Shown here: piece by piece, positions 45,702 through 63,229 of the stretch | Numbering within the stretch: position 1 is the stretch's first letter | How the letters are laid out: each line of letters opens with the position of its first letter | Assembly (NCBI GenBank): GCA_947464185.1 | Contig: CANHVY010000018.1 | Location: 3,220-67,219, forward strand | DNA: 64,000 nt | Reading direction: 5' to 3' | DNA from: Burkholderiales bacterium | Lineage (GTDB): Bacteria; Pseudomonadota; Gammaproteobacteria; Burkholderiales; Burkholderiaceae_C | Program-made: the position numbers and the translations under genes | Notes under the pieces: model-generated | What the model was told of the DNA's origin: nothing | Seen by the model: only the letters and a program-made list of their open reading frames with translations | Databases searched by the model: none

Positions 45702-45806
45702 CGCGCCCTGTCGCCAGGGGAGCCCGAGTGGGGGCTGAGAGTACCGTCCATGGGGGACGGTAGACCCTGGAACCTGATCCGGGTGATACCGGCGGAGGAA
45801 GCGCGG
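45702..45806 (+). promoter_or_regulatory. TPP (THI-box) riboswitch
   Basis: Conserved cores GGGGCUGAGA (45730-45740), ACCCUGGAACCUGAUCCGGGUGAUACCGGCGGAGGAAG (45764-45801). A candidate P1 pairs CGCGC (45702-06) with GCGCG (45801-05). The GGAGGAA Shine-Dalgarno-like stretch lies inside the 3' part, 8-9 nt before the ATG at 45808. Confidence 0.85.
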
Positions 45807-45807
45807 C

Positions 45808-48113: not shown

Positions 48114-48181
48114 GCCCGCGATTATCGTGAGGCACTCCGTTGCAGCCTCCGTCGCAACGAGACACCTTCAGGAGCGCGCCG

Positions 48182-49270
48182 ATGAGCGCCAGAGCCGACG
48201 CCACGGTGCTGGGCGCAGGCCTGATGGGCCGCTTGCTGGCACATGCACTGGCCGCCCGGGGCATGACCGTCGAGGTCCGGGATGCCGGCACACCTGATGC
48301 CCAAGGCGCAGCGGCTCGGGTGGCCGCGGCCATGCTCGCGCCCTTGGCGGAGTCCGCCGTGACCGAGTGGCCCGTCGTGCGCATGGGCGTGCACGCTCTG
48401 CAGCGCTGGCCCGAAATCCTCCAGACCCTGCCCGAACCCGTGTTCCTGCAACGTGAGGGCACGGTCATCGTCTGGCATCGGCAGGATGCCTCTGAAGCCA
48501 GACGGTTCCAAGCGCTGCTGGCCCGCACGGCTGGGGCGCTGCGCGAGGTGCCGGGCCTCGAGCCCGCCGTCGAGCTGGACGCCACGGGGCTGGACGCGAT
48601 GGAGCCTGGCCTTGGCGCGCGGTTCCCGCGCGGCCTGCACCTGCCAGGGGAAGGGCAGCTCGACAACCGCGCCTTGCTCCAGGCCCTGCTGCGCTCGCTT
48701 CAAGACATGCCGGGCGTGCAACTGCTGTGGGAGCACCCCACCGATCCGTCCGCGCTTCCTGACGATGGCCGCTGGGTGTTCGATTGCCGCGGCCTGGGCG
48801 CAAAAGCTCATTGGCCCGGCCTGCGAGGCGTTCGCGGCGAAGTCGTGCGGCTGCATGCACCGGGCGTCCGGTTGCGTCGTCCGACACGGCTCATCCATCC
48901 CCGGCACCCGATCTACATCGCGCCCAAGCCGGGCGATCTGTTCGTGGTGGGCGCCACCGAGATCGAGACAGAGGATGTGTCGCCCGCCACGGTGCGCTCC
49001 ACCCTGGAGCTGCTGAGTGCGGCCTACACGGTGGACCCGGCTTTCGGGGAGGCCCGGATCGTCGAGATCTCCGCGCAGGCGCGGCCCACCCTGCCTGACA
49101 ACCTGCCGCTGCTGGAGGTGATGGCGCCGCGGCGCCTGCGCATCAATGGCCTGTATCGTCATGGGTTTCTCATCGCGCCGGCCTTGCTCGATGCCACGCT
49201 GCAGTGGATGGAACTCGGCGCTTCCCCGCTTGCGGCATCGTTCGGTCTTCGCATCCAGCACGACACATGA
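48182..49270 (+). CDS. thiO: FAD-dependent glycine oxidase ThiO
   Basis: Rossmann motif VLGAGLMGRLLAHALAARG. Position and translational coupling (ATGA) with thiS-thiG. Confidence 0.8.
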   Translation: MSARADATVLGAGLMGRLLAHALAARGMTVEVRDAGTPDAQGAAARVAAAMLAPLAESAVTEWPVVRMGVHALQRWPEILQTLPEPVFLQREGTVIVWHRQDASEARRFQALLARTAGALREVPGLEPAVELDATGLDAMEPGLGARFPRGLHLPGEGQLDNRALLQALLRSLQDMPGVQLLWEHPTDPSALPDDGRWVFDCRGLGAKAHWPGLRGVRGEVVRLHAPGVRLRRPTRLIHPRHPIYIAPKPGDLFVVGATEIETEDVSPATVRSTLELLSAAYTVDPAFGEARIVEISAQARPTLPDNLPLLEVMAPRRLRINGLYRHGFLIAPALLDATLQWMELGASPLAASFGLRIQHDT

Positions 49271-49536
49271 GCCTCTCAATGCACCCCCAAGGGCCGTCCG
49301 AAGTCCCGCCACACGCCGCTGGTGAGGAAGCCGACAGCATCCACGTCACCATCAACGAGGAAGCGCACCGCCTGCGCGCAGGCGCCACACTGGCCGATGC
49401 CATCGAGTGCATCGGCATCCGCCCGCCATTCGCCGCAGCGGTGAACCTGAACTTTGTGCCGCGCGGCCAGCATGGCAGTCATCCGCTGAAAGCCGGCGAT
49501 CGTGTGGAACTCATCGCGCCGATCACGGGGGGGTGA
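49267..49536 (+). CDS. thiS: Sulfur carrier protein ThiS
   Basis: Ubiquitin-like small protein ending in ...ELIAPITGG (C-terminal Gly-Gly). The N-terminal start is uncertain. Confidence 0.8.
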   Translation: MSLSMHPQGPSEVPPHAAGEEADSIHVTINEEAHRLRAGATLADAIECIGIRPPFAAAVNLNFVPRGQHGSHPLKAGDRVELIAPITGG

Positions 49537-49540
49537 TGCC

Positions 49541-50449
49541 ATGAAGCCCCCGATCCACACCGCCGACCCTGCCAGCGCCACGCAAGCCATGAGCCCCAAC
49601 CTCGAAGCGATGACATCCCCGGCCCCAGGCGTGCCGCCCGCGTCCGAGCACTCCTCGCCTCCAGACCCGCTGATCCTGTACGGCGAAAGCTTCGCCAGCC
49701 GCCTGCTTCTGGGCACGTCGCGCTACCCCTCCCCGCTCGTGCTGCACAGAGCCGTCGGCCGCAGCCAGCCCGCCATGCTGACCGCTTCGTTGAGGCGCCA
49801 GACCGGGGGCTCCAGCGCCGAAGCGTCCCGAAGCTTCTGGCAACTGCTGCAAGCCATGGCCGTGCCGGTGCTGCCCAACACCGCGGGTTGCCACACCGTC
49901 CAGGAGGCGATCACCACGGCCGAGATGGCGCGCGAGGTGTTCGAAACCGACTGGATCAAGCTCGAGCTGATCGGTGACACGGACACCTTGCAACCCGATG
50001 TGATCCATCTCCCCCAGGCGGCCGAGCACCTCATTCGCGCCGGATTCAAGGTGCTGCCTTATTGCACCGAAGACCTCGTGCTGTGCCGCCGTCTGGTGGA
50101 GGTGGGCTGCCAGGCCGTCATGCCCTGGGCGGCGCCCATCGGTACCGGCCAAGGGCCCGTGAACCCGTATGCGATGCGCATGCTGCGGGAGCGTCTTGAG
50201 GTGCCGATGATCGTGGACGCCGGCCTGGGCCGGCCCTCGCACGCCTGCACGGTGATGGAGTGGGGCTATGACGCCGTCCTGCTCAACACCGCCGTGGCCC
50301 TGGCGCAGGACCCCGTCGCCATGGCAGGCGCCTTCGCCCAGGCCGTCAGCGCCGGCCGCGCGGCGTTTCTGGGGGGCACGATGTCGGCGCAGGAAGCCGC
50401 TCAGGCCAGCACGCCCGTTCTGGGCACTCCCTTCTGGCATCAGACATGA
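49541..50449 (+). CDS. thiG: Thiazole synthase
   Basis: Blocks WIKLELIGD, VLPYCTED, VMPWAAPIGTGQG and VDAGLGRPSHA. The start is uncertain, and there is a Pro/Ser-rich N-terminal extension. Confidence 0.9.
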   Translation: MKPPIHTADPASATQAMSPNLEAMTSPAPGVPPASEHSSPPDPLILYGESFASRLLLGTSRYPSPLVLHRAVGRSQPAMLTASLRRQTGGSSAEASRSFWQLLQAMAVPVLPNTAGCHTVQEAITTAEMAREVFETDWIKLELIGDTDTLQPDVIHLPQAAEHLIRAGFKVLPYCTEDLVLCRRLVEVGCQAVMPWAAPIGTGQGPVNPYAMRMLRERLEVPMIVDAGLGRPSHACTVMEWGYDAVLLNTAVALAQDPVAMAGAFAQAVSAGRAAFLGGTMSAQEAAQASTPVLGTPFWHQT

Positions 50450-51459
50450 ACATCGAACACTTGTATTCCGCGGCTGCACGGATCGCAGCCGCCAACCCGC
50501 TGCTGCAGATCGGCCCGGCGCTGGCTCCCCTGGCCGCCACCCGGCCCGGGGATGTCGATCTCTCCGCCCTGGAGGCCTCTGCCCGGATCGCCGCGCGGAT
50601 GCTGGGCTTCGTCGAGGCCGACGCTGCCGTCATCGCGTGCGCCTGGCAGGCCCGTGCGCAGCGCTCCGGACGAGGGGCCCTCACGGAAGCAAGGATCGAG
50701 GAAGGCGCCGATGTCGATCCGCTGGACCTCAGCTGGCCTGACGATCCGGTCGATTTCGGCATTCCCCCCTGGCCGAGGAAAGACGCGTTCGCTCCTTGCC
50801 CGGAGGACCTGGGGCTGTACGTGGTGGCACCCGATGCCCAGTGGATCGCCAGGCTGGCCCAGTGGGGCGTGCCCACGGTGCAACTGCGCTACAAGCCGGC
50901 CATGGGGACGGAGCCGGTCAGCCGTGAGGTTCAGGCCCAGGTGCGCGAAGCCGTACGCGCCGTCGAAGGAACGGCCACGCGTCTGTTCATCAACGATCAC
51001 TGGCGCATCGCCTTGGAAGAAGGCGCCTACGGGGTGCATCTTGGGCAGGAAGACCTGAGCACGCTGTCGGGGGCGGAGCTGGAGCGCATGCGCCAAGCCG
51101 GGTTGAGGCTCGGCCTCAGCACCCATGGCTACGCCGAGATGCTGCGTGCAGACGCCGTCGGCCCCAGCTACCTGGCCATGGGGGCGGTCTACCCCACCAC
51201 TCTCAAGGAGATGCCGACGGCTCCGCAAGGCCCCCACCGCCTGGCTGCGTACGTCCGGCTCATGCGAGGACGCCCCCTCGTGGCCATCGGGGGCATTGAC
51301 GATACGCGCCTTGACGAGGTGGGGCGGTCGGGCGTCGGCTCGGTGGCCGTGGTGCGGGCCGTCATCGGCGCCGCCGACCCCGAGGCGGCGGCCAGATCAC
51401 TGATGCACAGGATGTCCGCTTTCCCTCTGGCTTTCAATTCCAGCTCGCCGCTCTTCTGA
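50446..51459 (+). CDS. thiE: Thiamine-phosphate synthase with ~120-aa N-terminal extension
   Basis: ThiE blocks in the C-terminal ~210 aa (VQLRYK, LFINDHW, GVHLGQEDL, LGLSTHG, VAIGGI). ATGA overlap with the thiG stop. Confidence 0.85.
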   Translation: MNIEHLYSAAARIAAANPLLQIGPALAPLAATRPGDVDLSALEASARIAARMLGFVEADAAVIACAWQARAQRSGRGALTEARIEEGADVDPLDLSWPDDPVDFGIPPWPRKDAFAPCPEDLGLYVVAPDAQWIARLAQWGVPTVQLRYKPAMGTEPVSREVQAQVREAVRAVEGTATRLFINDHWRIALEEGAYGVHLGQEDLSTLSGAELERMRQAGLRLGLSTHGYAEMLRADAVGPSYLAMGAVYPTTLKEMPTAPQGPHRLAAYVRLMRGRPLVAIGGIDDTRLDEVGRSGVGSVAVVRAVIGAADPEAAARSLMHRMSAFPLAFNSSSPLF

Positions 51460-52227: not shown

Positions 52228-55200
52228 TCAGATGAGACGGAGCAATTCATGCGCTTGTCGGAGGCCGCGGGTCGCGCGCGTCCACCACTGGGAGAAGCTG
52301 CTGCAGGGGCGCTCCACGGGTGGGAACAGGCCGGGTGATGGCTCGCACTGCGCCACGGCAGGCAGCCAGGCTTGCAGATGCGGGTCGCTCACGCTGCGCA
52401 CCGAGGCCGCGCCGTGCAGAGCGCGTTGGAGCTCCGCCGTGCTCGCCCACCAGCAATTTGAAGTCACACCGGCCATGGCCGCATGCACCCAGCGCCAGCG
52501 CGCTTCAGGCCACGGCCAAGTCTGGTGATGCTCGCGCAGGAAAACGCCGATGACGAAGGTGCCCTCAGGCAAGTCCAGCGGGGGCGGCCGCAGCGCCCAG
52601 GGGTGCACCAGCCACACATGGCGGCCTTGCAAGGACTTCACATCGCCGGCGGCCGGCCTCGTCAAGCCCAGGTCTGCAGGTGGGCTGTGCAGGAGCGGCG
52701 GCTCGGAGATGCCGCCTGGCGTCAACGCGAAGGTACGCGGCGGCGGCCCGGATCGCCCGGGGTGCTCACCCCGGGCCAGCCGATCCAGCGCCTCGTAGCT
52801 CTGGTCCACCACCGTGCTCGGGCTGTGCCAGTGCGGCGGGGCGTACCGCGCCACGTTCTCGGCGTTGAACAGGTAAGGCTTGTGGCTGCCCGTGCCGGCC
52901 ACCCACTGCCAGCTCAGGTGGTTGCTGGCCAGGTCGCCGTCCAGCAGGTGCGCCACCATCCAGTCCGCCCCGGCGCGCCAGTGCACCTGGCGCAGGTGCA
53001 CCACGTAGCTGGCCAGCCACATGCGGGCGTGGTTGTGCAGCGTGCCCGTGGTGTAGAGCGTGCGCACGGCCTCGTCCACCACCGGCACGCCTGTGCGCGC
53101 CTGGCGGATGTCGGCCGGCAGCTCCCTGGCGTAGGCGCCGTCAGGGCGCGGGCCGGGATGGACAGAAGTCAGGATGCCGTCACCCAGGTGGCCCCAGGCA
53201 TGGCGGAAGAACTCGCGCCAGCCCAGTTCGAACACCAGCTTGTGCTGCACCTCCAGCGGCCCGCGCTCCAGCACGCCGGCCAGCACCTCGGGCAGCGTCA
53301 CCAGGCCGTGGGTGATGTAGGGCGACAGGCCCGTCACCGCCCCTTCCAGGTGGTTGCGCGTGCGGGCATAGGCCGTGGGCCGCACCTGTCGCACGCGCTC
53401 CAGCGCAGCGCTGCGGGTGGGCGGCAAGGCGTCCGCCCAGGTTGAGGCAGGCGCCACAGGTGCAGGGTTGAGCCGCGCAGCCAGTTTGGCAAAGAAGTCC
53501 AGGCTGGCGGGGTTGAGCATGGCGTCCGCGCTGGCCACCTGGTGACGGGGCTGGCCCAGCAGCAGCTTGCGCACCGGCACCTCCATCTTCTTGCCCGTCA
53601 GCGTGCGGGGAATCTCCGCCACCTGCATCACCTCGTCGGGCACATGCCGGGCCGAGGCCTTGGTGCGGATCTCGTTCGCGATGCGGGCCTTCAGCGCCTC
53701 GTCCAGCACGCAGCCGGGCTGCAGCACCACGAACAGCGGCAGGAAGGAAGGCCGGCCCAGGTACTCCAGGTCGACCACCAGGCTGTCCCGCACCTCGGGC
53801 AGTTCCTCCACCACACGGTAGATCTCGGCCGTGCCCATGCGGATGCCGAAGCGGTTGATGGTGCTGTCGGAGCGGCCGTAGATCACCGAGGTGCCGCGCG
53901 GGGTGAAGCGGATCCAGTCGCCATGGCGCCACACCCCGGGAAAGGTCTCGAAGTAGCTCTCCAGGTAGCGGCGTTGGCCAGGGTCGTTCCAGAAGTACAG
54001 CGGCATGGACGGCATGGGCTGCGTGATCACCAGCTCGCCCACCTCGTCGGTCACGGGCTGGCCCGCCTCGTTGTACGCACACGCGGCCACGCCCAGCTCG
54101 GCGTGCTGGATCTCGCCCGCCGTCACCGGCAAGCCGGGCGCGCAGGCCACGAAGCCCGAGGCGATGTCCGTGCCGCCGCTGATGGAGGCCAGCCAGACAT
54201 CAGGCTTCACGTCCGCGTACACCCATCGATAGGCCTCGATGGGCAAGGGCGAGCCGGTGGAGTTGAGGGCGCGCAGCGCCGTCAAGGCAGCGAAGTCCCG
54301 CGGCCGCAGCCCGTCCTTCATGCAGTTGACCAGGAAGGCCGCTCCGCACCCCAGCAAGGTCACGCCCTGCTCGTCGATGAAGCGCCACAGCGCCTGGCTG
54401 TCGGGCCAGGCCGGGTTGCCGTCGTACAGCACGATGGACGCCCCCGTCAGCAGCCCGCCCACCTGCAGGTTCCACACGATCCAGCCCGTGCCGCCCAGGA
54501 ACAACATCCGGTCGCCCGCGCGCAGATCGTGCTGCAGGGCCAGGGTCTTCAGGTGCGTGAGCACGATGCCGCCATGCCCGTGCACCATGGCCTTGGGCAG
54601 GCCCGTGGTGCCCGAGGAGTAGACGATCCACAGCGGATGGTCGAAGGGCAGGCGCTCGAAGCGCAGCTCGGCCGGCTGCGCCACCGCCTCGGCCCAGCTC
54701 ACGCAGTCACGCCAGGCGGCCGGCGGCTGCGCGGCCGCGGGCCCGGGCACGTGCACCACGGTGCGGATGCTCGGCAGCTCACGCAGCAGTTCGGCCACCA
54801 CGTCCGCTCGGTGGTGGATCTTGCCGTTGTGGTGCACGCTGTCGGTGGCCAGCAGCAGCTTGGGCTCGATCTGGCGCAGACGGTCCAGCACCACCGTGGC
54901 GCCCATGTCGGGCCCACAGCTCGACCAGACGGCGCCAATGCTGGCACAGGCCAGGAAGGCCACCACCGTCTCCGCGCGGTTGGGCAGGTAGGCGGCCACC
55001 CGGTCGCCCGCCCCCACGCCCAGCGCACGCAGGCGTTCGGCCAAGGCGCCTGTGTCGCGCTGCAAGTCCGCCCAGGACACCTGCTGCACGGGCGCATCCT
55101 CCCGGCGGGTGATGAGGGCCGGGCGCGCGTCGGTGGCGTTACGGAACACATGCTCCGCGTAGTTCAGCCTGGCGTTCGGGAACCACGACGCACCAGGCAT

Positions 55201-55542
55201 CTGGCGCGACCCCAGCACCGGCTGGCAAGAGCCATCGGCCAGTACCTGGAAGTGGTCCCAGATGGACTGCCAGAAGGGCTCGATGTGATCGACCGACCAG
55301 CGCCACAGGTCTCGGTAGTCGGCAAACGCCAGCCCGCGTTCAGCCTGCAGCCAGCGTTCGTAGGCCGCCAGGGCCGACGCGGCCACCTGCTCTGGCGCCG
55401 GTTGCCACAGCAGCGTGCCCTCGACGGGCGCAGGGGAAGTGGGAGGGTTCAAGACAGGGCCTGAAGAGAAACGGCCGCGCAGAATACGGCACCGCCAGCC
55501 CCGCCGCAGATCCCGGGCCGGGCACCCCCGCGGCGCAGTCAA
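52228..55542 (-). CDS. Acetoacetyl-CoA synthetase fused in frame to a photolyase/cryptochrome-like FAD-binding module
   Basis: Residues ~30-690 match acetoacetate-CoA ligase (YSSGTTGLPKAMVH, YGRSDSTINRFGIRMGTAEIY, ...NPASLDFF). Residues ~705-925 carry photolyase FAD-domain blocks (TGLSPYITHG, LHNHARMWLASY, DGDLASNHLSWQWVAGTG). No stop codon separates them. The first ~30 aa are Arg-rich, so a TTG start at 55452 is a plausible alternative. Confidence 0.75.
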   Translation of the reverse strand: MTAPRGCPARDLRRGWRCRILRGRFSSGPVLNPPTSPAPVEGTLLWQPAPEQVAASALAAYERWLQAERGLAFADYRDLWRWSVDHIEPFWQSIWDHFQVLADGSCQPVLGSRQMPGASWFPNARLNYAEHVFRNATDARPALITRREDAPVQQVSWADLQRDTGALAERLRALGVGAGDRVAAYLPNRAETVVAFLACASIGAVWSSCGPDMGATVVLDRLRQIEPKLLLATDSVHHNGKIHHRADVVAELLRELPSIRTVVHVPGPAAAQPPAAWRDCVSWAEAVAQPAELRFERLPFDHPLWIVYSSGTTGLPKAMVHGHGGIVLTHLKTLALQHDLRAGDRMLFLGGTGWIVWNLQVGGLLTGASIVLYDGNPAWPDSQALWRFIDEQGVTLLGCGAAFLVNCMKDGLRPRDFAALTALRALNSTGSPLPIEAYRWVYADVKPDVWLASISGGTDIASGFVACAPGLPVTAGEIQHAELGVAACAYNEAGQPVTDEVGELVITQPMPSMPLYFWNDPGQRRYLESYFETFPGVWRHGDWIRFTPRGTSVIYGRSDSTINRFGIRMGTAEIYRVVEELPEVRDSLVVDLEYLGRPSFLPLFVVLQPGCVLDEALKARIANEIRTKASARHVPDEVMQVAEIPRTLTGKKMEVPVRKLLLGQPRHQVASADAMLNPASLDFFAKLAARLNPAPVAPASTWADALPPTRSAALERVRQVRPTAYARTRNHLEGAVTGLSPYITHGLVTLPEVLAGVLERGPLEVQHKLVFELGWREFFRHAWGHLGDGILTSVHPGPRPDGAYARELPADIRQARTGVPVVDEAVRTLYTTGTLHNHARMWLASYVVHLRQVHWRAGADWMVAHLLDGDLASNHLSWQWVAGTGSHKPYLFNAENVARYAPPHWHSPSTVVDQSYEALDRLARGEHPGRSGPPPRTFALTPGGISEPPLLHSPPADLGLTRPAAGDVKSLQGRHVWLVHPWALRPPPLDLPEGTFVIGVFLREHHQTWPWPEARWRWVHAAMAGVTSNCWWASTAELQRALHGAASVRSVSDPHLQAWLPAVAQCEPSPGLFPPVERPCSSFSQWWTRATRGLRQAHELLRLI

Positions 55543-56455: not shown

Positions 56456-56746
56456 GGGGCTTGGTGGGGGCCTGGCGTCGTGGCCCGGTGCACGGAAGAA
56501 GTCTTCCAACGTGCTCCGCATGCTGGCTCACCCCATGAGCCACATGGCCATCAGACTCGCATCCATGCATCAATCATCAAGCCCCCAGCAAAGTGGTATC
56601 CCCTGGCCTGCAAACCGAATCTCGACAGCCCATCCCGCTGCCCCGGAGTTGCCGCCGGCAGAGCCATGCCGAACAGGGCCGAAGCAAGGAAGGCCCTGTC
56701 GCCTACAGGGTTCTGACAGCTGATTGACGTGCATCAGAATCTGCCC

Positions 56747-57415
56747 ATGATCACGTTCACCGTTCGGGCGACGCTGCGCGCTCCCATCATTCGCCGGGGG
56801 TTCGTCACGTTGGACGCCCTGCTGATGGCGGTGCTCGGTCGGGGGGACGTGTCAGACCTTCTGCGGTGCGAAGACGGGTTGTATTTCGCCAGCGCCGGCA
56901 CGGTGGCGGCCGGTACCCCTCAGCAGACCGCTTCTTTCGTGGCCAGCATGCGGCCTGAACACTCGCCGCAGTGGCTGGACGTCGTCGCCCCCAACACTGC
57001 CAATGCCGACATCGGTTTTGCCGAAGGCGCCAAGGGCCGTGGCCGGCTGAACGACCTCAGGGTCGGCCTGTCCCGTCAGCGGGAAGGTGGCAACGTCATC
57101 AATGCTTATCGGGCCCAGGCCAGCACAGAAATCGAGTGGTATGCCACCGGCAGGCCTGAGGAAGTTCTGGCGGCATTGAAGGACGTGCCTTTCATCGGCA
57201 AACGCAGAACCGCAGGCTACGGCGAAGTCAGCCGCTGGGTGGTGACCCCAGGCGACTTGGACGGCGTGTCGGGTTACCTTGACGAGCCCCTCAGACCCGT
57301 TCCCGTGGACCGCTGGAAGCTGGGCGGTGACTGGATTGCCGTGGAAGCCGCCTGGAAAGCGCCTTATTGGGACGTACGCAATCGCGCGAAGTGCTTCGTG
57401 CCCTTCATCTCATGA
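56747..57415 (+). CDS. RAMP-superfamily protein, Cas5/Csf3-like candidate (first gene of the cas operon)
   Basis: N-terminal beta-strand/helix pattern MITFTVRATLRAPII..FVTLDALLMAVLG, and a glycine-rich loop FIGKRRTAGYGEV near the C-terminal third. Translationally coupled (ATGA) to the next ORF. An alternative GTG start lies at 56729. The family assignment is by eye only. Confidence 0.5.
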   Translation: MITFTVRATLRAPIIRRGFVTLDALLMAVLGRGDVSDLLRCEDGLYFASAGTVAAGTPQQTASFVASMRPEHSPQWLDVVAPNTANADIGFAEGAKGRGRLNDLRVGLSRQREGGNVINAYRAQASTEIEWYATGRPEEVLAALKDVPFIGKRRTAGYGEVSRWVVTPGDLDGVSGYLDEPLRPVPVDRWKLGGDWIAVEAAWKAPYWDVRNRAKCFVPFIS

Positions 57416-57822
57416 ACGGGGCCGAGTTCTTCATGGAGCACGCCGGCTACCGGCTGCTGCCCGAGGCGCTGGTGACCGGTGACGCCGTGGACGATGCAGG
57501 CTCGCTGTTCAATATCTCGCTGCCTTTGCACACGGGCTCGAAACTGCACTTATCCGCCTGCTGGATGGTGGTCACCCCGCAGTGGACGGCCACCAGCTTC
57601 AAGGCCTTGCCGGTGGCGGGATTTCGACTTGGAGGGGAACGGGCTGTCGCCATGCTGGAAGCCTTGAAGTCGGGTGAGCCGTGCCTGATCCTGGAGTTAC
57701 GCAGGCGCACCCTGAGGCCACGGGATCTGTTTGTGACGTATGACCCACGGGCCACCCGCATCTGTTCCGCGGGCTTGACCAGGACCCTGGACGCCACGCA
57801 GGAGAAGTGGTGGACATCCTGA
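57412..57822 (+). CDS. Small cas-operon protein of unknown family (possible minimal large/small-subunit substitute)
   Basis: 136-aa ORF, coupled on both sides by overlaps (ATGA at 57412-57415; 16-nt overlap with the next gene). No CxxC zinc-finger and no motif I can recognise. Confidence 0.4.
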   Translation: MNGAEFFMEHAGYRLLPEALVTGDAVDDAGSLFNISLPLHTGSKLHLSACWMVVTPQWTATSFKALPVAGFRLGGERAVAMLEALKSGEPCLILELRRRTLRPRDLFVTYDPRATRICSAGLTRTLDATQEKWWTS

Positions 57823-58292
57823 TCGACAAACCCGCCAAGGTGCGGGGTTACGCCTTGCACCGGCTGGTCGCACAGTACCTTCAGGGCCGACCGGCGCTTT
57901 GGGCGGACGAAGGTCAGCAAGTTCGCATTCGCCTCAAGGACGCCGCACCGCCTGAGTACGAAGTGGGCAAGGTGCTGGGCTTCACCGTCCGCGCCTGCGT
58001 CTCTTACAGCACCAAGAACCACCACCGGTACCTCCCGCTGGACGACTGGCGGGGCCGGCGGCACTGGCTGGAGTCCAAAGCGGGCGGGTGGGGCTTTGAG
58101 GTGCTGGGGGTGCATGTGCGCGGCGCCATGTCCCTCATCGAAGCCCATGACGGGCGCAGGTTCACGGTGGACGCCACCGAATTCACCGGCATCCTGCGCG
58201 TCACCGACCCCGTAGCCTTTTCAAGCTGCCTTGTCACCGGAATCGGCAAGGTGGGGCGTGCGTTCGGCCTGGGGCTTCTCATCGTTCAGTGA
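57807..58292 (+). CDS. cas6: Short Cas6-family (Cas6e/Csf5-like) crRNA endoribonuclease candidate
   Basis: The C-terminal glycine-rich loop GIGKVGRAFGLGLLIV matches the Cas6e-type G-loop (GIGrakAFGcGLL). At 161 aa it is shorter than typical Cas6e. GTG start. Confidence 0.55.
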   Translation: MVDILIDKPAKVRGYALHRLVAQYLQGRPALWADEGQQVRIRLKDAAPPEYEVGKVLGFTVRACVSYSTKNHHRYLPLDDWRGRRHWLESKAGGWGFEVLGVHVRGAMSLIEAHDGRRFTVDATEFTGILRVTDPVAFSSCLVTGIGKVGRAFGLGLLIVQ

Positions 58293-58319
58293 CCAACCAT
58301 CCACCACAGGGGGCCATCC

Positions 58320-59288
58320 ATGACACCAGCCTTCATCTTGGCCGACGTGCTCGTTCACACCGTCCAGCCGCTGACCTACACGCACCACGGCGTGAAGGAC
58401 CTGCCCTTGATGACCCGGGGCGTGGACGGCGAAGGCAAGCCTCAACGCACGGTCTACATCCCGGCCGCGCAGTTTCGTGGGCGTTTGCGGCACGAGGCGG
58501 CCCTGGCTGAATTGCGCGCACGGCCCGCCAAGGTCAAGCTGGAGGACGCCTACATGCTCGCCCTGGGCCAGGACCTGGACCCGGAAGAAGATGAGGAACC
58601 CGAGGCCATTCGCCTGGGTGACCAGATCAAGTTCCGCAAGGACAACCCCTTTCTGGACCTCTTCGGCACCTGGAAGGTGGCCAGCCGGCTGTACGTGTCC
58701 CACCTGATGCCTGAGGTGAACCTGATGCCCGACCGTGTCAGCCACATCCGGCGTGACCTCGACAGTGACGAAGACATGATGGGGCTGCTGGGAGATGACG
58801 AGCAGAACCGGATGTACGACCGGCAAACCAAGCAAGCGATGGCCTCCAAGGTGGGCACGCTCATCAAGCAGGCTGAAGCGGCGCTGAAGACAGCCCGCAA
58901 GCAACGCGACACGGCCCTGGTCGACCAGCTAGAAGCAAACCTCAAGGAGTTGAAAGACCTCAAGAAGCAACGCAAGGGCGATGACGAGTCCGACAACACC
59001 AAGCTCCTCGTGGAGTTGCAGGTGATTCCCGCAGGGATTGACCTGCTGGGCAAGATCACGGTTCAGGGCCCGCGCCCGTCAGACCTGATGTATCTCACCC
59101 AGGCGTTTGAAGCCTTGAGCCTCAAGCCCATGCTGGGCGCGCAGCGGGCACGCGGCTGTGGCGAGGTGCGGGGGCAGGCCAGCTTCCGGCTGCCGACTGG
59201 TGAACCTCTGGCCACAGTGGCGTTCGGGGGCTTCGTGCCGACACCGACACAGTGGACGGATGCAGGCCGGGCGTTCATGAACGCCTGA
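58320..59288 (+). CDS. cas7: Cas7-family backbone subunit (Csf2-like) with charged helical insertion
   Basis: RAMP/Cas7 signatures IPAAQFRGRLRH (compare IPGSSlKGalR), NPFLDLFG, and the G-rich loop GAQRARGCGEV. Residues ~145-226 are a Lys/Glu/Asp-rich predicted helical insertion. Confidence 0.6.
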   Translation: MTPAFILADVLVHTVQPLTYTHHGVKDLPLMTRGVDGEGKPQRTVYIPAAQFRGRLRHEAALAELRARPAKVKLEDAYMLALGQDLDPEEDEEPEAIRLGDQIKFRKDNPFLDLFGTWKVASRLYVSHLMPEVNLMPDRVSHIRRDLDSDEDMMGLLGDDEQNRMYDRQTKQAMASKVGTLIKQAEAALKTARKQRDTALVDQLEANLKELKDLKKQRKGDDESDNTKLLVELQVIPAGIDLLGKITVQGPRPSDLMYLTQAFEALSLKPMLGAQRARGCGEVRGQASFRLPTGEPLATVAFGGFVPTPTQWTDAGRAFMNA

Positions 59289-59294
59289 GTTCAC

Positions 59295-60878
59295 GTGGGC
59301 TACAGAAGCGCAGAGCAGCAGGCTTACGCCCGGCTCATCGAGGGGGCGCTGCGCCCGGGGGCGCCCCTGCTGGCCGGGGCTGCGCCCGGCCTGGGCAAGA
59401 CACATGGCTATTCCCTGCCCCTGGTGGCCTGCGGGCAGCGCGTGGCCGTGGCCATGAGCACCCGGCAGTTGATCGAGCAGTACCTGCAAAGCGACGCCTT
59501 GCGTGAAGCCCTGACGCTCAGGCCGGCCTCGGTGATGGCGCTGCACCCGCGTCGAGACTTTGGGTCCGATGCGGCTTATCGGGAACACCGCGCCGCCGCC
59601 CTGAAGGCGGAAGTTCTGGTGGTGACCCACGCGGCCACGCTGATCGACAGTTGGCACCCGGGCTACGCCGAACTGCGGTCCCGCCAAGTGGTGCTGTTCG
59701 ACGAAGCCGATCTCCTGGCGGACGCGGCCGATCTCAGAAGCACCTTCAGCATCGACGCCGAGGTACTGGAGGCCTGCAAGGCCCTGAACCTGCCCCACCA
59801 GGAAGCCGCCCAGGCGGTCAAGGACAAGGCTGAAGCGCCGGAAGACCGGGCTGCCGCCTCTGCCATCCTCTTCGCCCTGGCGCACCCGGCTTGGTACAAG
59901 GCCGTGGGCCGGGAGGAGGATGGGGCCCTGACCCTGAAGCACCGGATGCCGGGCAGGATGCTCAGGCGCCTGGTGGAGGAGGTGCCCCGGTGCATCTTCA
60001 CCAGCGGCACGCTCCAGGTGGGCGGCAGATTCGACCATTTCGTCAGCGCCATCGGCTTGAAGTCCATCTCCCCTGAAAGCCGGCACATCGACCCTGCCCG
60101 CCACGGTGAACTGGAGGTGGAACTGGCCGCAGCCGAACTGACCGTGTCGCAGATGGCCGCGCGCATTCGGGCGGCGGAGCGTCCCACGCTGGTGCTGACC
60201 ACCAGCCACGCCATGACACAAGCGCTGGGAGAACTTTGCCCAGGCGCCGTCTGGCGGGCGCCCGGTGAGCCCCTGGGCGACGCATTGAGACGCGTGCCCG
60301 ACGGTGGAGTCTTCATCGCCGCGGGTGCATGGTCTGGCGTGGACGATCCTCGACTGCGATGGCGTACCGTGGTGATCCCGAAGACCCCCTACCAGCGGCC
60401 CGCAGTCCTGGACTCCATCCAGGTCACCCGGTACCTGGACGCCAAAGTGGTGGCCCTGAGGCGAACCCACCAGGGGCTGCACCGCGGGCTGCGCACGCCG
60501 GAGGCGAAGTGCAGGTTGCTGCTGCTGGATCCGCGAAGCGGGCGGGTTGAACTGCGAGAGGCGATCCCTGCGCGCTTCCGGGTGGATTGGCAGGGCTTCG
60601 ACGAAGGGTCTCCCACCCTGCGTGCCCATGTGGCCGGCGAGCGCCACCTCACGCTTCGCAACGCGGCGTTGCAAGCCCTGGGGGCGCGTTGCAGTCACCC
60701 GGGCTGCGAGGTCGCGGCCCTGCACCTGCTGGACGTGCATCACCTGAAGCCCGTGGCCGAAGGCCCGCGCCGCACCACCCTGGAGGACGTCACGGTTCTG
60801 TGCAAAAACCACCACGCCGAGGCCCATCACCGGATGCGCCAGGGCGAAATTTCAGCAACGCAGGAGGAAGATTCCTGA
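59295..60878 (+). CDS. dinG: DinG-family SF2 helicase fused to a C-terminal HNH nuclease (CasDinG-HNH)
   Basis: Helicase motifs: I AGAAPGLGKTHGY, II VVLFDEADLL, SAT-like FTSGTL, V AAGAWSGVDDP, IPKTPY, and VI THQGLHRGLRTPEAKCRLLLLDPR. HNH: CSHPGC...DVHHLKPVAEG...VLCKNHHAEAHH (residues ~450-512, nt ~60642-60830). GTG start 6 nt after the cas7 stop. The array begins 27 nt after its stop. Confidence 0.8.
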   Translation: MGYRSAEQQAYARLIEGALRPGAPLLAGAAPGLGKTHGYSLPLVACGQRVAVAMSTRQLIEQYLQSDALREALTLRPASVMALHPRRDFGSDAAYREHRAAALKAEVLVVTHAATLIDSWHPGYAELRSRQVVLFDEADLLADAADLRSTFSIDAEVLEACKALNLPHQEAAQAVKDKAEAPEDRAAASAILFALAHPAWYKAVGREEDGALTLKHRMPGRMLRRLVEEVPRCIFTSGTLQVGGRFDHFVSAIGLKSISPESRHIDPARHGELEVELAAAELTVSQMAARIRAAERPTLVLTTSHAMTQALGELCPGAVWRAPGEPLGDALRRVPDGGVFIAAGAWSGVDDPRLRWRTVVIPKTPYQRPAVLDSIQVTRYLDAKVVALRRTHQGLHRGLRTPEAKCRLLLLDPRSGRVELREAIPARFRVDWQGFDEGSPTLRAHVAGERHLTLRNAALQALGARCSHPGCEVAALHLLDVHHLKPVAEGPRRTTLEDVTVLCKNHHAEAHHRMRQGEISATQEEDS

Positions 60879-60905
60879 AGGGCGACAGGAACTTGCCGGC
60901 ATTGA

Positions 60906-61337
60906 GGTCAAGCCGCCTGTTGAATGGGCGGTTACTGGAACGACCTGTGGACGCGCCACATGGGCCTGCGCGGTCAAGCCGCCTGTTGAATGGGCGGTTA
61001 CTGGAACACCGTCACGCTCACCGCCTTCCGCGCGCCGGGTCAAGCCGCCTGTTGGATGGGCGGTTACTGGAACGATGTGGTGGGCCAGGCGCGGCCGCTG
61101 CTCGGTCAAGCCGCCTGTTGGATGGGCGGTTACTGGAACGTGTAGCCCAGGTTGCCGTACAGCAGGGTCGGTCAAGCCGCCTGTTGGATCGGCGGTTACT
61201 GGAACGGGTTGGTGTCCATCAGGTAGCCAAGCCAGGATCAAGCCGCCTGTTAGATGGGCGGTTACTGGAACATGAAGCAAGTGGTGGGCGAGGCCTGGCG
61301 GGGTCAAGCCGCCCATTGGATGGGCGGTTACTGGAGG
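60906..61337 (+). CRISPR. CRISPR array: 7 repeats (36 nt) and 6 spacers (30 nt), exact 66-nt period
   Basis: Repeats start at 60906, 60972, 61038, 61104, 61170, 61236 and 61302. Consensus GGTCAAGCCGCCTGTTGGATGGGCGGTTACTGGAAC. An internal hairpin (A)GCCGCC-N9-GGCGG(TT) is followed by 8 nt, ACTGGAAC. The last repeat is degenerate at its 3' end (..GGAGG). All six spacers are unique. Confidence 0.92.
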
Positions 61338-61433: not shown

Positions 61434-61754
61434 ATGACCGCCTCAACAACAGTCTTCTCCCCCACTTCTGCCGCCCAGCCCCTGCTGACAGCCACCCAGC
61501 TCGGTCAGCTGCTGCGCGCCGCGCGCAAGCAGCAGGGTCTGACGCAGGCCGAGGTGGGTGCGCGGCTGGGCTTGAGCCAGAACCGGGTCTCGCACCTGGA
61601 GGGCCACGCAGATGAGCTGAGCGTCAAGCAACTGCTGACCTGGTGCGCCGTGGTCGGTCTGGAGCTGAGTCTGGCGCATCGCCTGGCCAAGGCGCCTGAA
61701 GCCGGCGAGGTCCAGGCCCCTGGGTCTGCCGCCGCCACGCCGCCGGAGTGGTGA
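61434..61754 (+). CDS. hipB: XRE-family HTH antitoxin (HipB-like)
   Basis: HTH GLTQAEVGARLGLSQNRVSHLE. 106 aa, ending 1 nt before hipA. Confidence 0.8.
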   Translation: MTASTTVFSPTSAAQPLLTATQLGQLLRAARKQQGLTQAEVGARLGLSQNRVSHLEGHADELSVKQLLTWCAVVGLELSLAHRLAKAPEAGEVQAPGSAAATPPEW

Positions 61755-61755
61755 G

Positions 61756-63099
61756 ATGGCACGCCGCTCCAAAGCCCAGACCTTGGCCTTGTGGGCCAAC
61801 GGCACCTACGTCGGGCGCTGGACCGTCAGCGCCCGCGGCGAGATGGAGCTGCGGTACGACCCCGCATGGCGGGCGTCAGCCGTCGGGCGACCCTTGTCGC
61901 TGTCGATGCCCTTCGGCCTGGGGGACGAGCCGCTCAAGGGGCCCGCAGTCGAGCACTACTTCGACAACCTGCTGCCCGACAGCCCGGCCATCCGCAAGCG
62001 GGTGGCGGAGCGTTTCCGCACCGGGTCGGTCGAGGCCTTCGACCTGCTGGCGGCCATCGGCCGCGACTGCGTGGGTGCGCTGCAATTCCTGCCTGAGGGC
62101 GCGGCGCCCGAGGGGCTTGACCGGGTCGAGGGCGTCGAGGTGGACGAGGTCGCCATCGAGCGGCACCTGCTCGAGGTCGTGACGCCAGACCGGTTCGGCG
62201 CGGCACGTGACCGTGACGACGACTTCAGGATTTCGCTGGCTGGCGCGCAAGAAAAGGACGCCTTCCTGCGCTGGAACGGTCACTGGATGAAGCCGCGCGG
62301 CTCAACGCCCACCACGCACATCTTCAAGCTGCCATTGGGGCTTGTCGGCGGGCGGCAGGCCGACTTCAGCACCTCGGTGGACAACGAGTGGCTGTGCCTG
62401 AAGCTGCTGGCGGCGTACGGCCTGCCGGTGCCCCAGGCGGAGATTGTGTCGTTTGGTCAGCAGCGCGTGCTGGTGGTCGAGCGCTTCGACCGCATGGTGT
62501 CAGCCGATGGCCAGCGGCTGCTGCGGCTGGTGCAGGAGGACTTCTGCCAGGCGACCGGCACGTCGCCGCTGGTGAAGTACGAGGCGGAGGGCGGCCCCGG
62601 GCTGGGCGTGCTGTTCAACCTGCTTCAGCAGTCGGTCGACGCGGAGCGCGACCTGCGCACCCTGATGACCTCGCAGCTGCTGTTCTGGATGCTCCGGGCG
62701 CCGGATGGGCACGCAAAGAACTTCAGCATCCACCTGCTCCCAGGTGGACGCTACCGCATGACGCCGATCTATGACGTCATGTCGGCCTACCCCGTCATGG
62801 GCGATGCGCCCAACCAGTGGTCACCGCGGGCGCTCAAGCTGGCGATGGCCCTTGTGGGGAAGAACCGGCACTACGAGGTAGAACGCATCCAGCGGCGCCA
62901 CTTCAACAGCACCGCCAAGCGCTTCGGCTACGGCGAGACCGCAGAGCCCTTGATTCAGGAGTTCATTGCACGCACGCCGGCCGTCATCGACGAGGTGCAA
63001 AGGGCACTGCCGCCAGGGTTCTCCGACGAGGTGGCCGCCAAGGTGCTGAGCGGGCTGCAGGGCGCAGCGCGCGCCCTCGAGGCCATGTCGCCGGGCTGA
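61756..63099 (+). CDS. hipA: HipA-family serine/threonine kinase toxin
   Basis: HipA N-terminal coupling domain (LWANGTYVGRW), SLAGAQEKDAF, and the catalytic loop DGHAKNFS. 447 aa. Confidence 0.9.
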   Translation: MARRSKAQTLALWANGTYVGRWTVSARGEMELRYDPAWRASAVGRPLSLSMPFGLGDEPLKGPAVEHYFDNLLPDSPAIRKRVAERFRTGSVEAFDLLAAIGRDCVGALQFLPEGAAPEGLDRVEGVEVDEVAIERHLLEVVTPDRFGAARDRDDDFRISLAGAQEKDAFLRWNGHWMKPRGSTPTTHIFKLPLGLVGGRQADFSTSVDNEWLCLKLLAAYGLPVPQAEIVSFGQQRVLVVERFDRMVSADGQRLLRLVQEDFCQATGTSPLVKYEAEGGPGLGVLFNLLQQSVDAERDLRTLMTSQLLFWMLRAPDGHAKNFSIHLLPGGRYRMTPIYDVMSAYPVMGDAPNQWSPRALKLAMALVGKNRHYEVERIQRRHFNSTAKRFGYGETAEPLIQEFIARTPAVIDEVQRALPPGFSDEVAAKVLSGLQGAARALEAMSPG

Positions 63100-63117: not shown

Positions 63118-63154
63118 GGGCCAGCTTCTTGCGAAGCTGGCCCTCATCTTTCTT
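63118..63154 (+). terminator. Intrinsic terminator after hipA
   Basis: GGGCCAGCTTC-ttgc-GAAGCTGGCCC (11-bp stem) followed by TCATCTTTCTT. Confidence 0.75.
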
Positions 63155-63229
63155 GGCTCCCCGACCTGGGCTCGAACCAGGGACCTACGGATTAACAGTC
63201 CGGCGCTCTACCGACTGAGCTATCGAGGA
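63154..63229 (-). tRNA. tRNA-Asn (anticodon GTT), CCA encoded
   Basis: The reverse complement reads TCCTCGATAGCTCAGTCGGTAGAGCGCCGGACTGTTAATCCGTAGGTCCCTGGTTCGAGCCCAGGTCGGGGAGCCA. It has a 7-bp acceptor stem, a D-loop AGCTCAGTCGGTAGAGC, an anticodon loop CTGTTAA and a T-loop GGTTCGAGCC. Confidence 0.95.

Follow-up and report, generated by a model that had tools for sequence, protein, structure and literature searches.

A type IV-A CRISPR-Cas variant (IV-A2) with a CasDinG-HNH effector, probably active, and spacers matching phage-like genes

The locus described here lies in a 64-kb stretch of DNA that was analysed as a whole (the window), and is very likely a complete, probably active type IV-A CRISPR-Cas variant (IV-A2) with a CasDinG-HNH effector. 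An earlier note had read it as a type IV-A-like effector operon, and with this the profile, structure and direct sequence comparisons agreed. The DinG-HNH variant is rare but already characterised, and the locus is not a new kind: the system of Sulfitobacter sp. JL08 was tested experimentally by Altae-Tran et al. 2023, Science (PMC10910872), and the variant was named IV-A2 by Makarova et al. 2025 (PMC12669027) and appears as "CasDinG-HNH" in PMC11981726. Membership in the variant of that 2023 mining study, to which the note had pointed, was borne out, as all five proteins align with those of JL08 in gene order. The evidence computed here consists of the orthology of the parts, the conservation of catalytic residues and repeat structure, and phage-derived protospacers with the expected PAM. 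The features of the locus and its surroundings are as follows.

56713..56740, plus strand: sigma-70-like promoter candidate, CTGACA-16 nt-CAGAAT, just upstream of the cas5 ATG (consensus scan only)
56724-56751: second sigma-70-like promoter candidate, overlapping the cas5 start codon (consensus scan only)
56747..57415, plus strand: cas5 / csf3, 222 aa, ORF open from GTG 56729 (profiles, JL08 match, gene calls)
57412..57822, plus strand: small Csf1/Cas8-like subunit, 136 aa, putative homologue of the JL08 "M protein (Csf1/Cas8)"
57807..58292, plus strand: cas6, Cas6e/CasE-like, 161 aa, or 160 aa from GTG 57810 (Pfam, PADLOC, JL08 match)
58320..59288, plus strand: cas7 / csf2 backbone subunit, 322 aa (PADLOC, Pfam, PDB, JL08 match)
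59295..60878, plus strand: casDinG-HNH, 527 aa, SF2 DinG/XPD-type helicase with C-terminal HNH nuclease (PADLOC, Pfam, JL08, Foldseek)
59388..59402, plus strand: Walker A, G32-L-G-K-T36 (38-sequence family alignment)
59700..59711, plus strand: Walker B / DEAD box, D136-E137-A138-D139 (invariant in the 38-sequence family alignment)
60690..60827, plus strand: HNH core with Cys knuckle, C466, C471, H482-H483, D498, C503, N505, H507, H511
60906..61337, plus strand: CRISPR array, seven 36-nt repeats GGTCAAGCCGCCTGTTGGATGGGCGGTTACTGGAAC and six 30-nt spacers
60942..60971, plus strand: spacer 1, matching a phage-like dNMP-kinase-like gene
61074..61103, plus strand: spacer 3, matching a phage tyrosine integrase gene
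61206..61235, plus strand: spacer 5, matching a phage terminase large subunit gene, antisense strand
63154-63229, minus strand: tRNA-Asn

The five genes are tightly packed on the plus strand between 56747 and 60878, with translational coupling and no disrupted ORF among them. Their coordinates reproduce the layout first described for the operon: an ATGA overlap at 57412-57415, where the small-subunit start lies on the cas5 stop codon, a 16-nt overlap of the small subunit and cas6 ORFs (57807-57822; 13 nt if Cas6 starts at the adjacent GTG, as gene calls on contig L011 suggest), and gaps of 27 nt between cas6 and cas7 and 6 nt between cas7 and dinG-HNH. Every peptide motif quoted in the note was likewise found in the translations. 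Cas5 most likely starts at ATG 56747, because both the JL08 N-terminus and the genes called on near-identical contigs point to this start, the latter being 222 aa long and assigned to PF27782:Csf3. The second ORF starts at ATG 57412, and nearly all of its 89 listed homologues are 136 aa long (about 70 of them exactly). The promoter scan returned two sites where 0.5 were expected, both being candidates from consensus alone.

Type IV-specific profiles were the top matches for Cas5, Cas6, Cas7 and DinG. Cas5 matched PADLOC typeIV_Cas5 over its full length (1.5e-24) and NCBIfam cas5_csf3 at 6e-7, below the cut-off of that model, and showed 34% identity to JL08 Csf3 over 228 aa (E 1e-36). Cas6 matched Pfam CRISPR_assoc (PF08798) above cut-off (7e-17), PADLOC typeIV_Cas6 (1.5e-21) and Cas6e (7e-20), and JL08 Cas6 with 38% identity (E 8e-35), while its matches to Cse3 in the PDB were weak. 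Cas7 was recovered by PADLOC typeIV_Cas7 (3e-32), Pfam RAMPs (1e-4) and JL08 Csf2 (33% identity, E 6e-40), and its sole sequence match in the PDB was Csf2, 8rc2_A (1.4e-14, residues 13-310). The reading of three ORFs as Cas5, Cas6 and Cas7, made by eye in the note, thus has the agreement of profile searches and of direct comparison with JL08.

The Cas6e-like character of Cas6 could also suggest a reduced type I (I-E-like) Cascade without Cas3 that lies by chance beside a housekeeping DinG/XPD helicase, and the best NCBIfam matches of the helicase were indeed YoaA and DinG, but these were far under their cut-offs. Such an arrangement is extremely unlikely, since Cas5 and Cas7 match Csf3 and Csf2 models and not type I models, and the helicase is best matched by type IV DinG (PADLOC typeIV_DinG, 1.7e-45, against 2.5e-17 for YoaA) and structurally by a type IV-A3 CasDinG. 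In addition, every examined locus that reaches far enough upstream has the other four cas genes of this operon alongside the helicase.

The identity of the small subunit is less apparent from standard searches: Pfam, PADLOC, PDB-sequence and hhalign searches gave no signal, and profile comparison with IV-A3 Csf1 found nothing. By local blastp it matched the JL08 M protein at the equivalent position, with 39% identity across 31 aa (E 3e-8), and the gene occupies the identical operon slot. The top PDB matches of its AF2 model (pLDDT 91) in Foldseek, 8rc2_G, 7xg1_A and 8rc3_G, were weak (E 0.26-3.8, TMq 0.34-0.38), the first of them being the Csf1 chain of a type IV-A complex. The short match, the operon position and the weak structural matches together point to a Csf1-like subunit homologous to the JL08 M protein. 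The statement that there is no recognisable Csf1 therefore holds for sequence profiles, but not for the operon, in which the second ORF appears to fill this role.

The fusion of a DinG helicase to an HNH nuclease, the central observation of the note, was recovered by profile, structure and sequence comparison alike. Pfam identified DEAD and Helicase_C_2 domains, the best Foldseek match of the AF2 model (pLDDT 84) was type IV-A3 CasDinG 8s35_M (1.7e-21), and identity to JL08 DinG-HNH was 35% over 536 aligned columns (E 2e-91). Within the family alignment, G32, G34, K35 and T36 of Walker A are invariant and L33 nearly so, and the Walker B residues D136/E137 align with D139/E140 of JL08, whose mutation abolished interference. 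Interference by most type IV-A systems involves no nuclease (PMC11519345), and the Pfam HNH match is weak (E 0.28), as might be expected if this were a canonical nuclease-free type IV-A system, with DinG blocking transcription or replication and an HNH-like region that is decayed or purely structural. This is improbable, as H483, D498 and H507 align with JL08 H497, D514 and H523, all required for activity, and the 38 family members have the HNH positions and Cys knuckle either unchanged or conservatively substituted (C466, H482, H483, C503 and H507 invariant, position 498 always D or E). Mutation of Walker B or HNH residues abolished the activity of the JL08 system, and JL08 DinG-HNH degrades DNA in vitro (PMC10910872). 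Orthology to JL08 and the conserved catalytic residues support the predicted crRNA-guided DNA degradation.

The comparison with JL08, for which the sequences of the plasmid map of Altae-Tran et al. 2023 were used, extends to the whole locus. Gene order is the same (cas5, small csf1-like gene, cas6, cas7, dinG-HNH), with 33-39% identity per protein; four proteins align near full length and the small subunit over a short stretch only. The JL08 proteins and those of this locus are, respectively, 213 and 222 aa (Csf3), 160 and 136 aa (M protein), 162 and 161 aa (Cas6), 326 and 322 aa (Csf2), and 557 and 527 aa (DinG-HNH, here without the C-terminal tail of about 30 aa found in JL08). Since the two loci agree in gene content and order and roughly in protein size, the suggestion that the locus is a further-reduced relative did not hold. 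The two differ in the position of the array, which follows dinG-HNH here but lies between cas7 and dinG-HNH in JL08 (PMC11981726) and in the relative L007, and in the host, which appears to be a high-G+C betaproteobacterium here and is a member of the Rhodobacterales in JL08.

The array of seven repeats begins 27 nt past the DinG-HNH stop codon, as reported in the note, and has a period of exactly 66 nt and a degenerate last repeat; no array promoter or leader was identified in this short interval. The 36-nt repeat is homologous to that of JL08, with the same hairpin, the same 8-nt tail and 30-nt spacers, and the orientation in which the two repeats align is the one expressed experimentally for JL08. 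Folding gave -13.5 kcal/mol for the plus strand versus -8.2 for the minus strand, and the array is predicted to be transcribed in the plus direction. The predicted hairpin (positions 6-14 with 20-28) is supported by covariation, being 96% paired across six family repeats with four pairs changed on both sides.

Three of the six spacers matched phage-like genes, each with a 5'-CCN flank that fits the 5'-YCN PAM of JL08. Spacer 1 had a 30/30 match in JGI contig L030 and one of 29/30 in L031, both without flanking repeats and with a 5' flank of CCT; the target ORF matches phrog_139 (1e-42), and neighbouring ORFs match a CI-like repressor and phage endonucleases. Spacer 3 matched eight IMG/VR contigs at 28-29/30 (flanks CCC, CCT or CCA) within an ORF matching phrog_1 (integrase, 5e-52), and spacer 5 matched five IMG/VR contigs at 28/30 (flank CCG) within an ORF matching phrog_15 (terminase large subunit, 1e-238). 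Three protospacer families underlie the PAM agreement; "CC" in all of them would arise by chance at about 1e-3 at the G+C here (our own estimate). The array itself has no PAM beside its spacers because the repeat ends in AAC. Matches to both coding and non-coding strands fit DNA rather than RNA targeting. The spacer searches tolerated mismatches at every sixth position only, and the mismatch pattern is therefore uninformative on a 6-nt periodicity.

Neither cas1 nor cas2 was found within the 64-kb window, in line with the claim that adaptation genes are lacking, and the array does not differ between three near-identical metagenome copies, which gives no indication that spacers were taken up recently. 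Together with the three spacers that had no match in the collections searched for them, this might suggest that the locus is a stranded, non-functional leftover, its effector module orphaned and its array frozen. We regard this as a slim prospect, given intact, coupled ORFs with conserved catalytic motifs, a family of at least 120 protein clusters in metagenomes that keep full length, and a spacer beside the presumed leader end (spacer 1) with a perfect phage-like match and PAM; moreover, type IV-A systems normally lack cas1/cas2 and can acquire spacers in trans (PMC11519345). Because of this absence, any new spacers would have to be supplied by adaptation genes located elsewhere in the genome, or else date from past acquisition. 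The five-gene operon with its 66-nt-period array recurs in unrelated chromosomal contexts, the few named relatives of the DinG-HNH family are betaproteobacteria, the contigs inspected are chromosomal, and no plasmid in PLSDB carries a close homologue. The chromosomal tRNA neighbour given in the note is the tRNA-Asn, although a hipBA toxin-antitoxin pair sits between it and the array.

The mechanism may be proposed, in all steps, by orthology to JL08. The five genes and the array would be transcribed in the plus direction, and the Cas6e-like Cas6 would cleave the pre-crRNA where the repeat hairpin ends on its 3' side, so that each crRNA carries the 8-nt handle ACUGGAAC at its 5' end, then a 30-nt spacer and a 3' hairpin. 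Cas5, several Cas7, Cas6 and the small Csf1-like subunit would assemble on it into a Cascade-like complex that reads the 5'-CCN (YCN) PAM and then forms an R-loop. CasDinG-HNH would load on the displaced non-target strand and translocate 5'->3' with ATP, the HNH domain cutting both strands along the way, with directional shredding of the target. In the way predicted for this locus, type I Cascade recruits a helicase-nuclease, Cas3, to a crRNA-guided complex and shreds its target directionally, but the helicases are only distantly related (DinG/XPD versus Cas3 SF2), the nucleases are unrelated (HNH versus HD), and DinG-HNH, going by the JL08 data, moves 5'->3' along the non-target strand.

Canonical IV-A1 and IV-A3 systems, from Pseudomonas and Klebsiella plasmids (structures 7xg1, 8rc2, 8rc3 and 8s35), share with the locus a Csf2/Csf3-type backbone, a CasDinG-family helicase, the lack of adaptation genes, and a Cascade-like architecture (predicted in the case of this locus) with PAM recognition and R-loop formation. 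They differ in being nuclease-free and acting by transcriptional interference, in a Csf1 of 240-263 aa with a zinc-finger N-terminal domain (136 aa and no CxxC pair here), and in a CasDinG that is about 600-720 aa long and has larger accessory domains. Typically, they are also plasmid-borne and plasmid-targeting, whereas the locus described here lies on a chromosome and carries spacers matching phage genes, and its natural role is, as judged from these sequences, presumably anti-phage defence.

By sequence comparison, the five-gene cas operon and adjoining CRISPR array are orthologous to, and share the architecture of, the DinG-HNH system of Sulfitobacter sp. JL08, and so belong to a variant of type IV that is already known, has been characterised by experiment, and carries a formal name. 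In JL08, an HNH domain is located at the C-terminal end of CasDinG, and this type IV-A variant gives PAM-dependent (5'-YCN) plasmid interference, produces processed crRNAs with 30-nt spacers, and cleaves dsDNA in a directional, laddered manner, as fits an enzyme that travels 5'->3' on the non-target strand (PMC10910872). Its activity requires all five proteins, the Walker B residues D139/E140, and the HNH residues H497, D514, and H523, and JL08 is the one system for which directional, crRNA-guided degradation of dsDNA that depends on ATP and HNH has been demonstrated (PMC10910872). The variant was designated IV-A2 in the 2025 classification (PMC12669027), and a 2025 review, which calls the effector CasDinG-HNH, gave Sulfitobacter JL08 and Nordella HKS 07 as the sole hosts (PMC11981726). 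An earlier note, made from the sequence alone, had pointed to an HNH-bearing DinG variant from a 2023 study, which is the JL08 system (PMC10910872). Its suggestion that the present locus might be a further-reduced relative was not borne out, given the orthology and the common architecture.

The features of the locus, as positions in the window, are as follows.

56729-57415, + strand: ORF 1, cas5, likely real start ATG 56747, 222 aa
57412-57822, + strand: ORF 2, small subunit, 136 aa
57807-58292, + strand: ORF 3, cas6, 161 aa
58320-59288, + strand: ORF 4, cas7, 322 aa
59295-60878, + strand: ORF 5, DinG-HNH, 527 aa
60906-61337, + strand: CRISPR array, seven 36-nt repeats with an exact 66-nt period and six 30-nt spacers

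The corresponding JL08 proteins are Csf3 (213 aa), the M protein (160 aa), Cas6 (162 aa), Csf2 (326 aa), and DinG-HNH (557 aa), and the JL08 array has a 36-nt direct repeat and a 30-nt guide (PMC10910872). The likeness covers a Csf3-type Cas5, a small subunit, a Cas6e-like Cas6, a Csf2-type Cas7, and DinG-HNH, and extends to the adjacent array with its 36-nt hairpin repeats and 30-nt spacers. Coordinates confirmed the compact, co-directional layout that had been read by eye, with an ATGA overlap at the first junction, a 16-nt overlap at the second (or 13 nt, should translation begin at the adjacent GTG, 57810), gaps of 27 and 6 nt at the remaining two, and the seven-repeat array beginning 27 nt past the last stop codon. 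Two promoter-like sites were seen at 56713-56751 (+ strand), one ending 7 nt before the cas5 ATG (56747) and the other overlapping it, and there was no Shine-Dalgarno sequence at this start; together these raise the speculative possibility that the transcript from which cas5 is translated might be leaderless or nearly so.

Four of the five proteins had type IV-specific models as their best PADLOC matches: Cas5 (typeIV_Cas5, 1.5e-24, full length), Cas6 (typeIV_Cas6, 1.5e-21), Cas7 (typeIV_Cas7, 3.2e-32), and the helicase (typeIV_DinG, 1.7e-45). Pfam searches returned the Cas6e family PF08798 (7e-17), RAMPs, DEAD, Helicase_C_2, and a weak HNH, while the NCBIfam equivalogs Csf3, Csf2, and Csf4 were matched with scores below their cut-offs. 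The sole PDB match of Cas7 was Csf2 of the type IV-A3 complex (8rc2_A, 1.4e-14). BLASTP comparison of the window proteins with JL08 sequences, taken from the plasmid map in supplementary file 23 of PMC10910872, gave 34% identity for Cas5 and Csf3 (E 1e-36), 38% for the two Cas6 proteins (8e-35), 33% for Cas7 and Csf2 (6e-40), and 35% over 536 aligned columns for the DinG-HNH pair (2e-91).

One rival reading takes the helicase to be a housekeeping DinG, and a variant of it regards the operon as a type I remnant lying beside such a gene. The AlphaFold model of the helicase (pLDDT 84) had type IV-A3 CasDinG as its best Foldseek match (8s35_M, 1.7e-21), and was closer to it than to XPD or housekeeping DinG, on which ground the first reading was rejected; the second was rejected as contradicted by the specific matches of the individual proteins. 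Given the type IV PADLOC, Pfam, PDB, and CasDinG structural matches, neither of two observations that the earlier note had named as fatal to its reading, a lack of Cas5, Cas6, and Cas7 folds or a helicase of the housekeeping kind, was made when looked for, and the type IV-A-like identity of Cas5, Cas6, Cas7, and DinG-HNH was upheld by profile, fold, and JL08 alignments alike.

It could also be supposed that the HNH domain has decayed, leaving a nuclease-dead silencing system. The domain is fused at the C-terminus of the locus DinG with its catalytic His, Asp, and His present, and the JL08 residues D139/E140 (Walker B) and H497, D514, and H523 (HNH) correspond to D136/E137 and to H483, D498, and H507, respectively. 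When 38 members of the family were aligned, Walker A (GKT34-36), Walker B (DEAD136-139), C466, H482, H483, C503, and H507 proved invariant, and position 498 was D or E throughout. This conservation of the residues essential in JL08 led us to reject decay, and the broader notion of a non-functional remnant is likewise contradicted by specific results.

The second ORF had been left unassigned in the earlier note, which saw no recognisable Csf1, and this holds for sequence profiles: neither the protein nor any of 35 homologues matched Pfam, PADLOC, or the PDB (including a PDB phmmer and a PDB profile search), and an hhalign comparison with type IV-A3 Csf1 gave no signal. It does not hold for comparison with JL08, where the ORF occupies the same slot, between cas5 and cas6, as the "M protein (Csf1/Cas8)", and matches it at the equivalent position with 39% identity over 31 aa (BLASTP, E 3e-8), the two having a C-terminal block in common (LFVTYDPRATRICS in the locus and VFATFDPRVTKICA in JL08). 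The family is well conserved, comprising 89 clusters of which nearly all are 136 aa, so that the subunit is half as long as canonical Csf1. In the PDB, the three closest neighbours of its AlphaFold model (pLDDT 91) came from three different type IV-A complexes (8rc2_G, 7xg1_A, and 8rc3_G), with weak Foldseek scores (E 0.26-3.8, TMq 0.34-0.38, about 80-88 columns); 8rc2_G was verified as Csf1, and 7xg1_A and 8rc3_G are of Csf1-like length. A zinc finger has been described for Cas8 of IV-A1 and IV-A3 (PMC11519345), and the small subunit has no CxxC pair that could match it. We treat this protein as the equivalent of Csf1, a small "large subunit"; that it is homologous to canonical Csf1 is plausible rather than proven.

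The repeat aligns without gaps to its JL08 counterpart, read in the direction in which a promoter drove the latter in the JL08 experiments, which indicates that array and cas genes are transcribed in the same sense. Both repeats have the same hairpin (positions 6-28) and 8-nt tail, and the predicted folding energy was -13.5 kcal/mol on the + strand versus -8.2 kcal/mol on the - strand. Across six family repeats the 9-bp helix was 96% paired, with four pairs changing on both sides, compared with only 26-56% when the pairing partner was slid by 1-3 columns as a control. In Cas6e systems, crRNA is cleaved at the 3' base of the hairpin, and a similar cut here would leave ACUGGAAC as the predicted 5' handle. 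The last (distal) repeat is degenerate, with four substitutions, which fits a leader on the dinG side. A consensus scan found no separate array promoter, so co-transcription with the operon is plausible. No CRISPR repeat family in Rfam was matched.

Spacer searches pointed to phages and prophages. Against PLSDB plasmids and GenBank phages, all six spacers gave chance-level matches (E=4) or none, and in IMG/VR, searched per spacer with every sixth base left free, there was no match for spacers 1, 2, 4, and 6. Spacer 3 matched eight IMG/VR contigs in a tyrosine integrase gene (phrog_1, 5e-52), with the 5' flank CCC, CCT, or CCA, and spacer 5 matched five IMG/VR contigs in a terminase large subunit gene (phrog_15, 1e-238), with the flank CCG. 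Spacer 1 was found in JGI metagenomes, at 30/30 and 29/30 positions in two contigs without flanking repeats, with the flank CCT; its target is a dNMP-kinase-like ORF (phrog_139, 1e-42), adjoining genes for a CI-like repressor and phage endonucleases. All three protospacer families thus carry 5'-CCN, which, in silico, fits the 5'-YCN PAM of JL08, and the array's own spacers lack an adjacent PAM since the repeat ends in AAC. The coding strand was matched by two spacers and the non-coding strand by one, as expected for DNA targeting. Mismatches at positions 12, 18, 24, and 30 follow from how the search was set up, and give no evidence of a 6-nt periodicity. No self-target was found in the window with up to seven mismatches. 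Three metagenome assemblies carry the entire locus in near-identical form (99.8% over 15 kb), and as the arrays of these copies are identical, spacer turnover between strains cannot be read from them.

DinG-HNH homologues formed at least 120 clusters at 90% identity, mostly metagenomic, with 47-89% identity and almost all of 507-546 aa; the few relatives with a name, all betaproteobacteria, were an uncultured beta proteobacterium, a Rubrivivax MAG, and Roseateles hydrophilus. Long contigs of relatives carried the same five-gene operon and a 66-nt-period array in differing, chromosomal housekeeping neighbourhoods, with no cas1 or cas2 within 8-10 kb. In one relative (L007), the array separates cas7 from dinG-HNH. 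The divergent locus of Roseateles hydrophilus UHG3 (NZ_JAPPUY010000004.1, L003:3927-9500; about 40% identity) is rearranged to cas6-cas7-array-cas5-small ORF-dinG-HNH, has an array of about 21 repeats with a 66-nt period, and lies among transposase, resolvase, and integrase genes.

Type IV systems are typically, if not by strict definition, carried on a plasmid or integrative element. No such carriage was seen here: the surrounding genes are of a chromosomal housekeeping kind (GSTs, an SDR, a 2-oxoacid dehydrogenase E2, and a thi operon with its TPP riboswitch), and PLSDB held no plasmid with a close homologue. A tRNA-Asn gene lies nearby (63154-63229, - strand), with a hipB/hipA pair between it and the array, so the chromosomal, tRNA-proximal setting given earlier was correct. 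There was no integrase or att repeat next to tRNA-Asn, and no direct repeat of at least 11 nt linking its region to the upstream border, which leaves island boundaries indefinable. The cas region has a slightly lower G+C content (63-66%, compared with about 70% in the flanks) and a lower GC3, which, with the mobile-gene setting in Roseateles hydrophilus, suggest past horizontal transfer. In agreement with the earlier note, none of cas1, cas2, cas3, cas9, cas10, or cas12 was detected among the five locus, 30 PADLOC-scanned, and 20 further Pfam-scanned window proteins.

Toxin-antitoxin genes often neighbour the arrays. In the window, hipB (HTH) and hipA directly follow the array (61434-63099, + strand), and BrnT/BrnA follow it in two relatives (L004:12126-13176 and L015:10815-13188), the latter also with a PemK toxin gene; two other relatives (L007 and L010) had no recognisable pair. 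Such modules, recurring after arrays in several unrelated contexts, could make an island addictive or have a linked role in defence. A probable terminator, consisting of a G+C-rich hairpin (GGGCCAGCTTC-TTGC-GAAGCTGGCCC, 63118-63147) and the T-rich tract after it, lies past the hipA stop codon and ahead of the 3' end of tRNA-Asn. Elsewhere in the window, a 1104-aa ORF (52228-55542, - strand) joins an acetoacetyl-/acetyl-CoA-synthetase-like part (ACAS_N, AMP-binding) to a photolyase/cryptochrome FAD-binding domain (PF03441), an unusual fusion, if real, that an independent caller rendered as a single 1074-aa gene on a metagenome contig near-identical to the locus (L011). The TPP riboswitch (45706-45818, + strand; RF00059, 57 bits) lies upstream of the gene at 45808-47205 and near an ordinary set of thiD, thiO, thiS, thiG, and thiE (47235-51459). 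The first ORF (21-1160, + strand) matched PADLOC "RT-Protease_XI" models (4e-17) only in their C-terminal protease-like part, and probably encodes a plain serine protease rather than a defence protein.

An active IV-A2 (CasDinG-HNH) system that would work as in JL08 best accounts for what was computed, namely the orthology, the conservation of motifs, the structure of the repeat, and the protospacers, and it is by analogy with JL08 that we infer expression and activity. Cas6 would process the crRNA, Cas5, Cas7, Cas6, and the small subunit would form a Cascade-like complex that reads a CCN PAM and forms an R-loop, and the ATP-using helicase-nuclease would then shred the target directionally, the targets being phages and prophages. 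We think it improbable that the betaproteobacterial lineage differs functionally from JL08, whether in a minimal subunit architecture or in the upkeep of arrays free of Cas1-Cas2. Were it to do so, the 136-aa protein, which has no zinc finger and no similarity to canonical Csf1 that can be detected by sequence, could act as a minimal large subunit while Cas5 does most of the reading of the CCN PAM, which would represent a new Cascade architecture; a chromosomal, phage-targeting array could be kept and updated without any Cas1-Cas2; and the toxin-antitoxin modules immediately after the array might be a linked addiction or abortive-infection partner.

To our knowledge, target cutting has been shown for no type IV system other than the CasDinG-HNH variant, and a compact RNA-guided DNA "shredder" would be attractive as a genome-editing tool. 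For an IV-A2 system working as in JL08, the use of the present locus lies in cataloguing and in divergent orthologues for engineering, and mechanistic understanding is unchanged; a cultured isolate such as Roseateles hydrophilus UHG3 would suit experiments. The variant emerges as a sizeable lineage, with a betaproteobacterial, chromosomal clade larger than the two hosts of the review, a variable array position, and frequent toxin-antitoxin neighbours. Spacers 1, 3, and 5 may give its first natural protospacers, and their CCN flanks independently support the experimentally derived 5'-YCN PAM. The phage-like nature of these protospacers points to an anti-phage role, in contrast to the plasmid-competition role of canonical IV-A.
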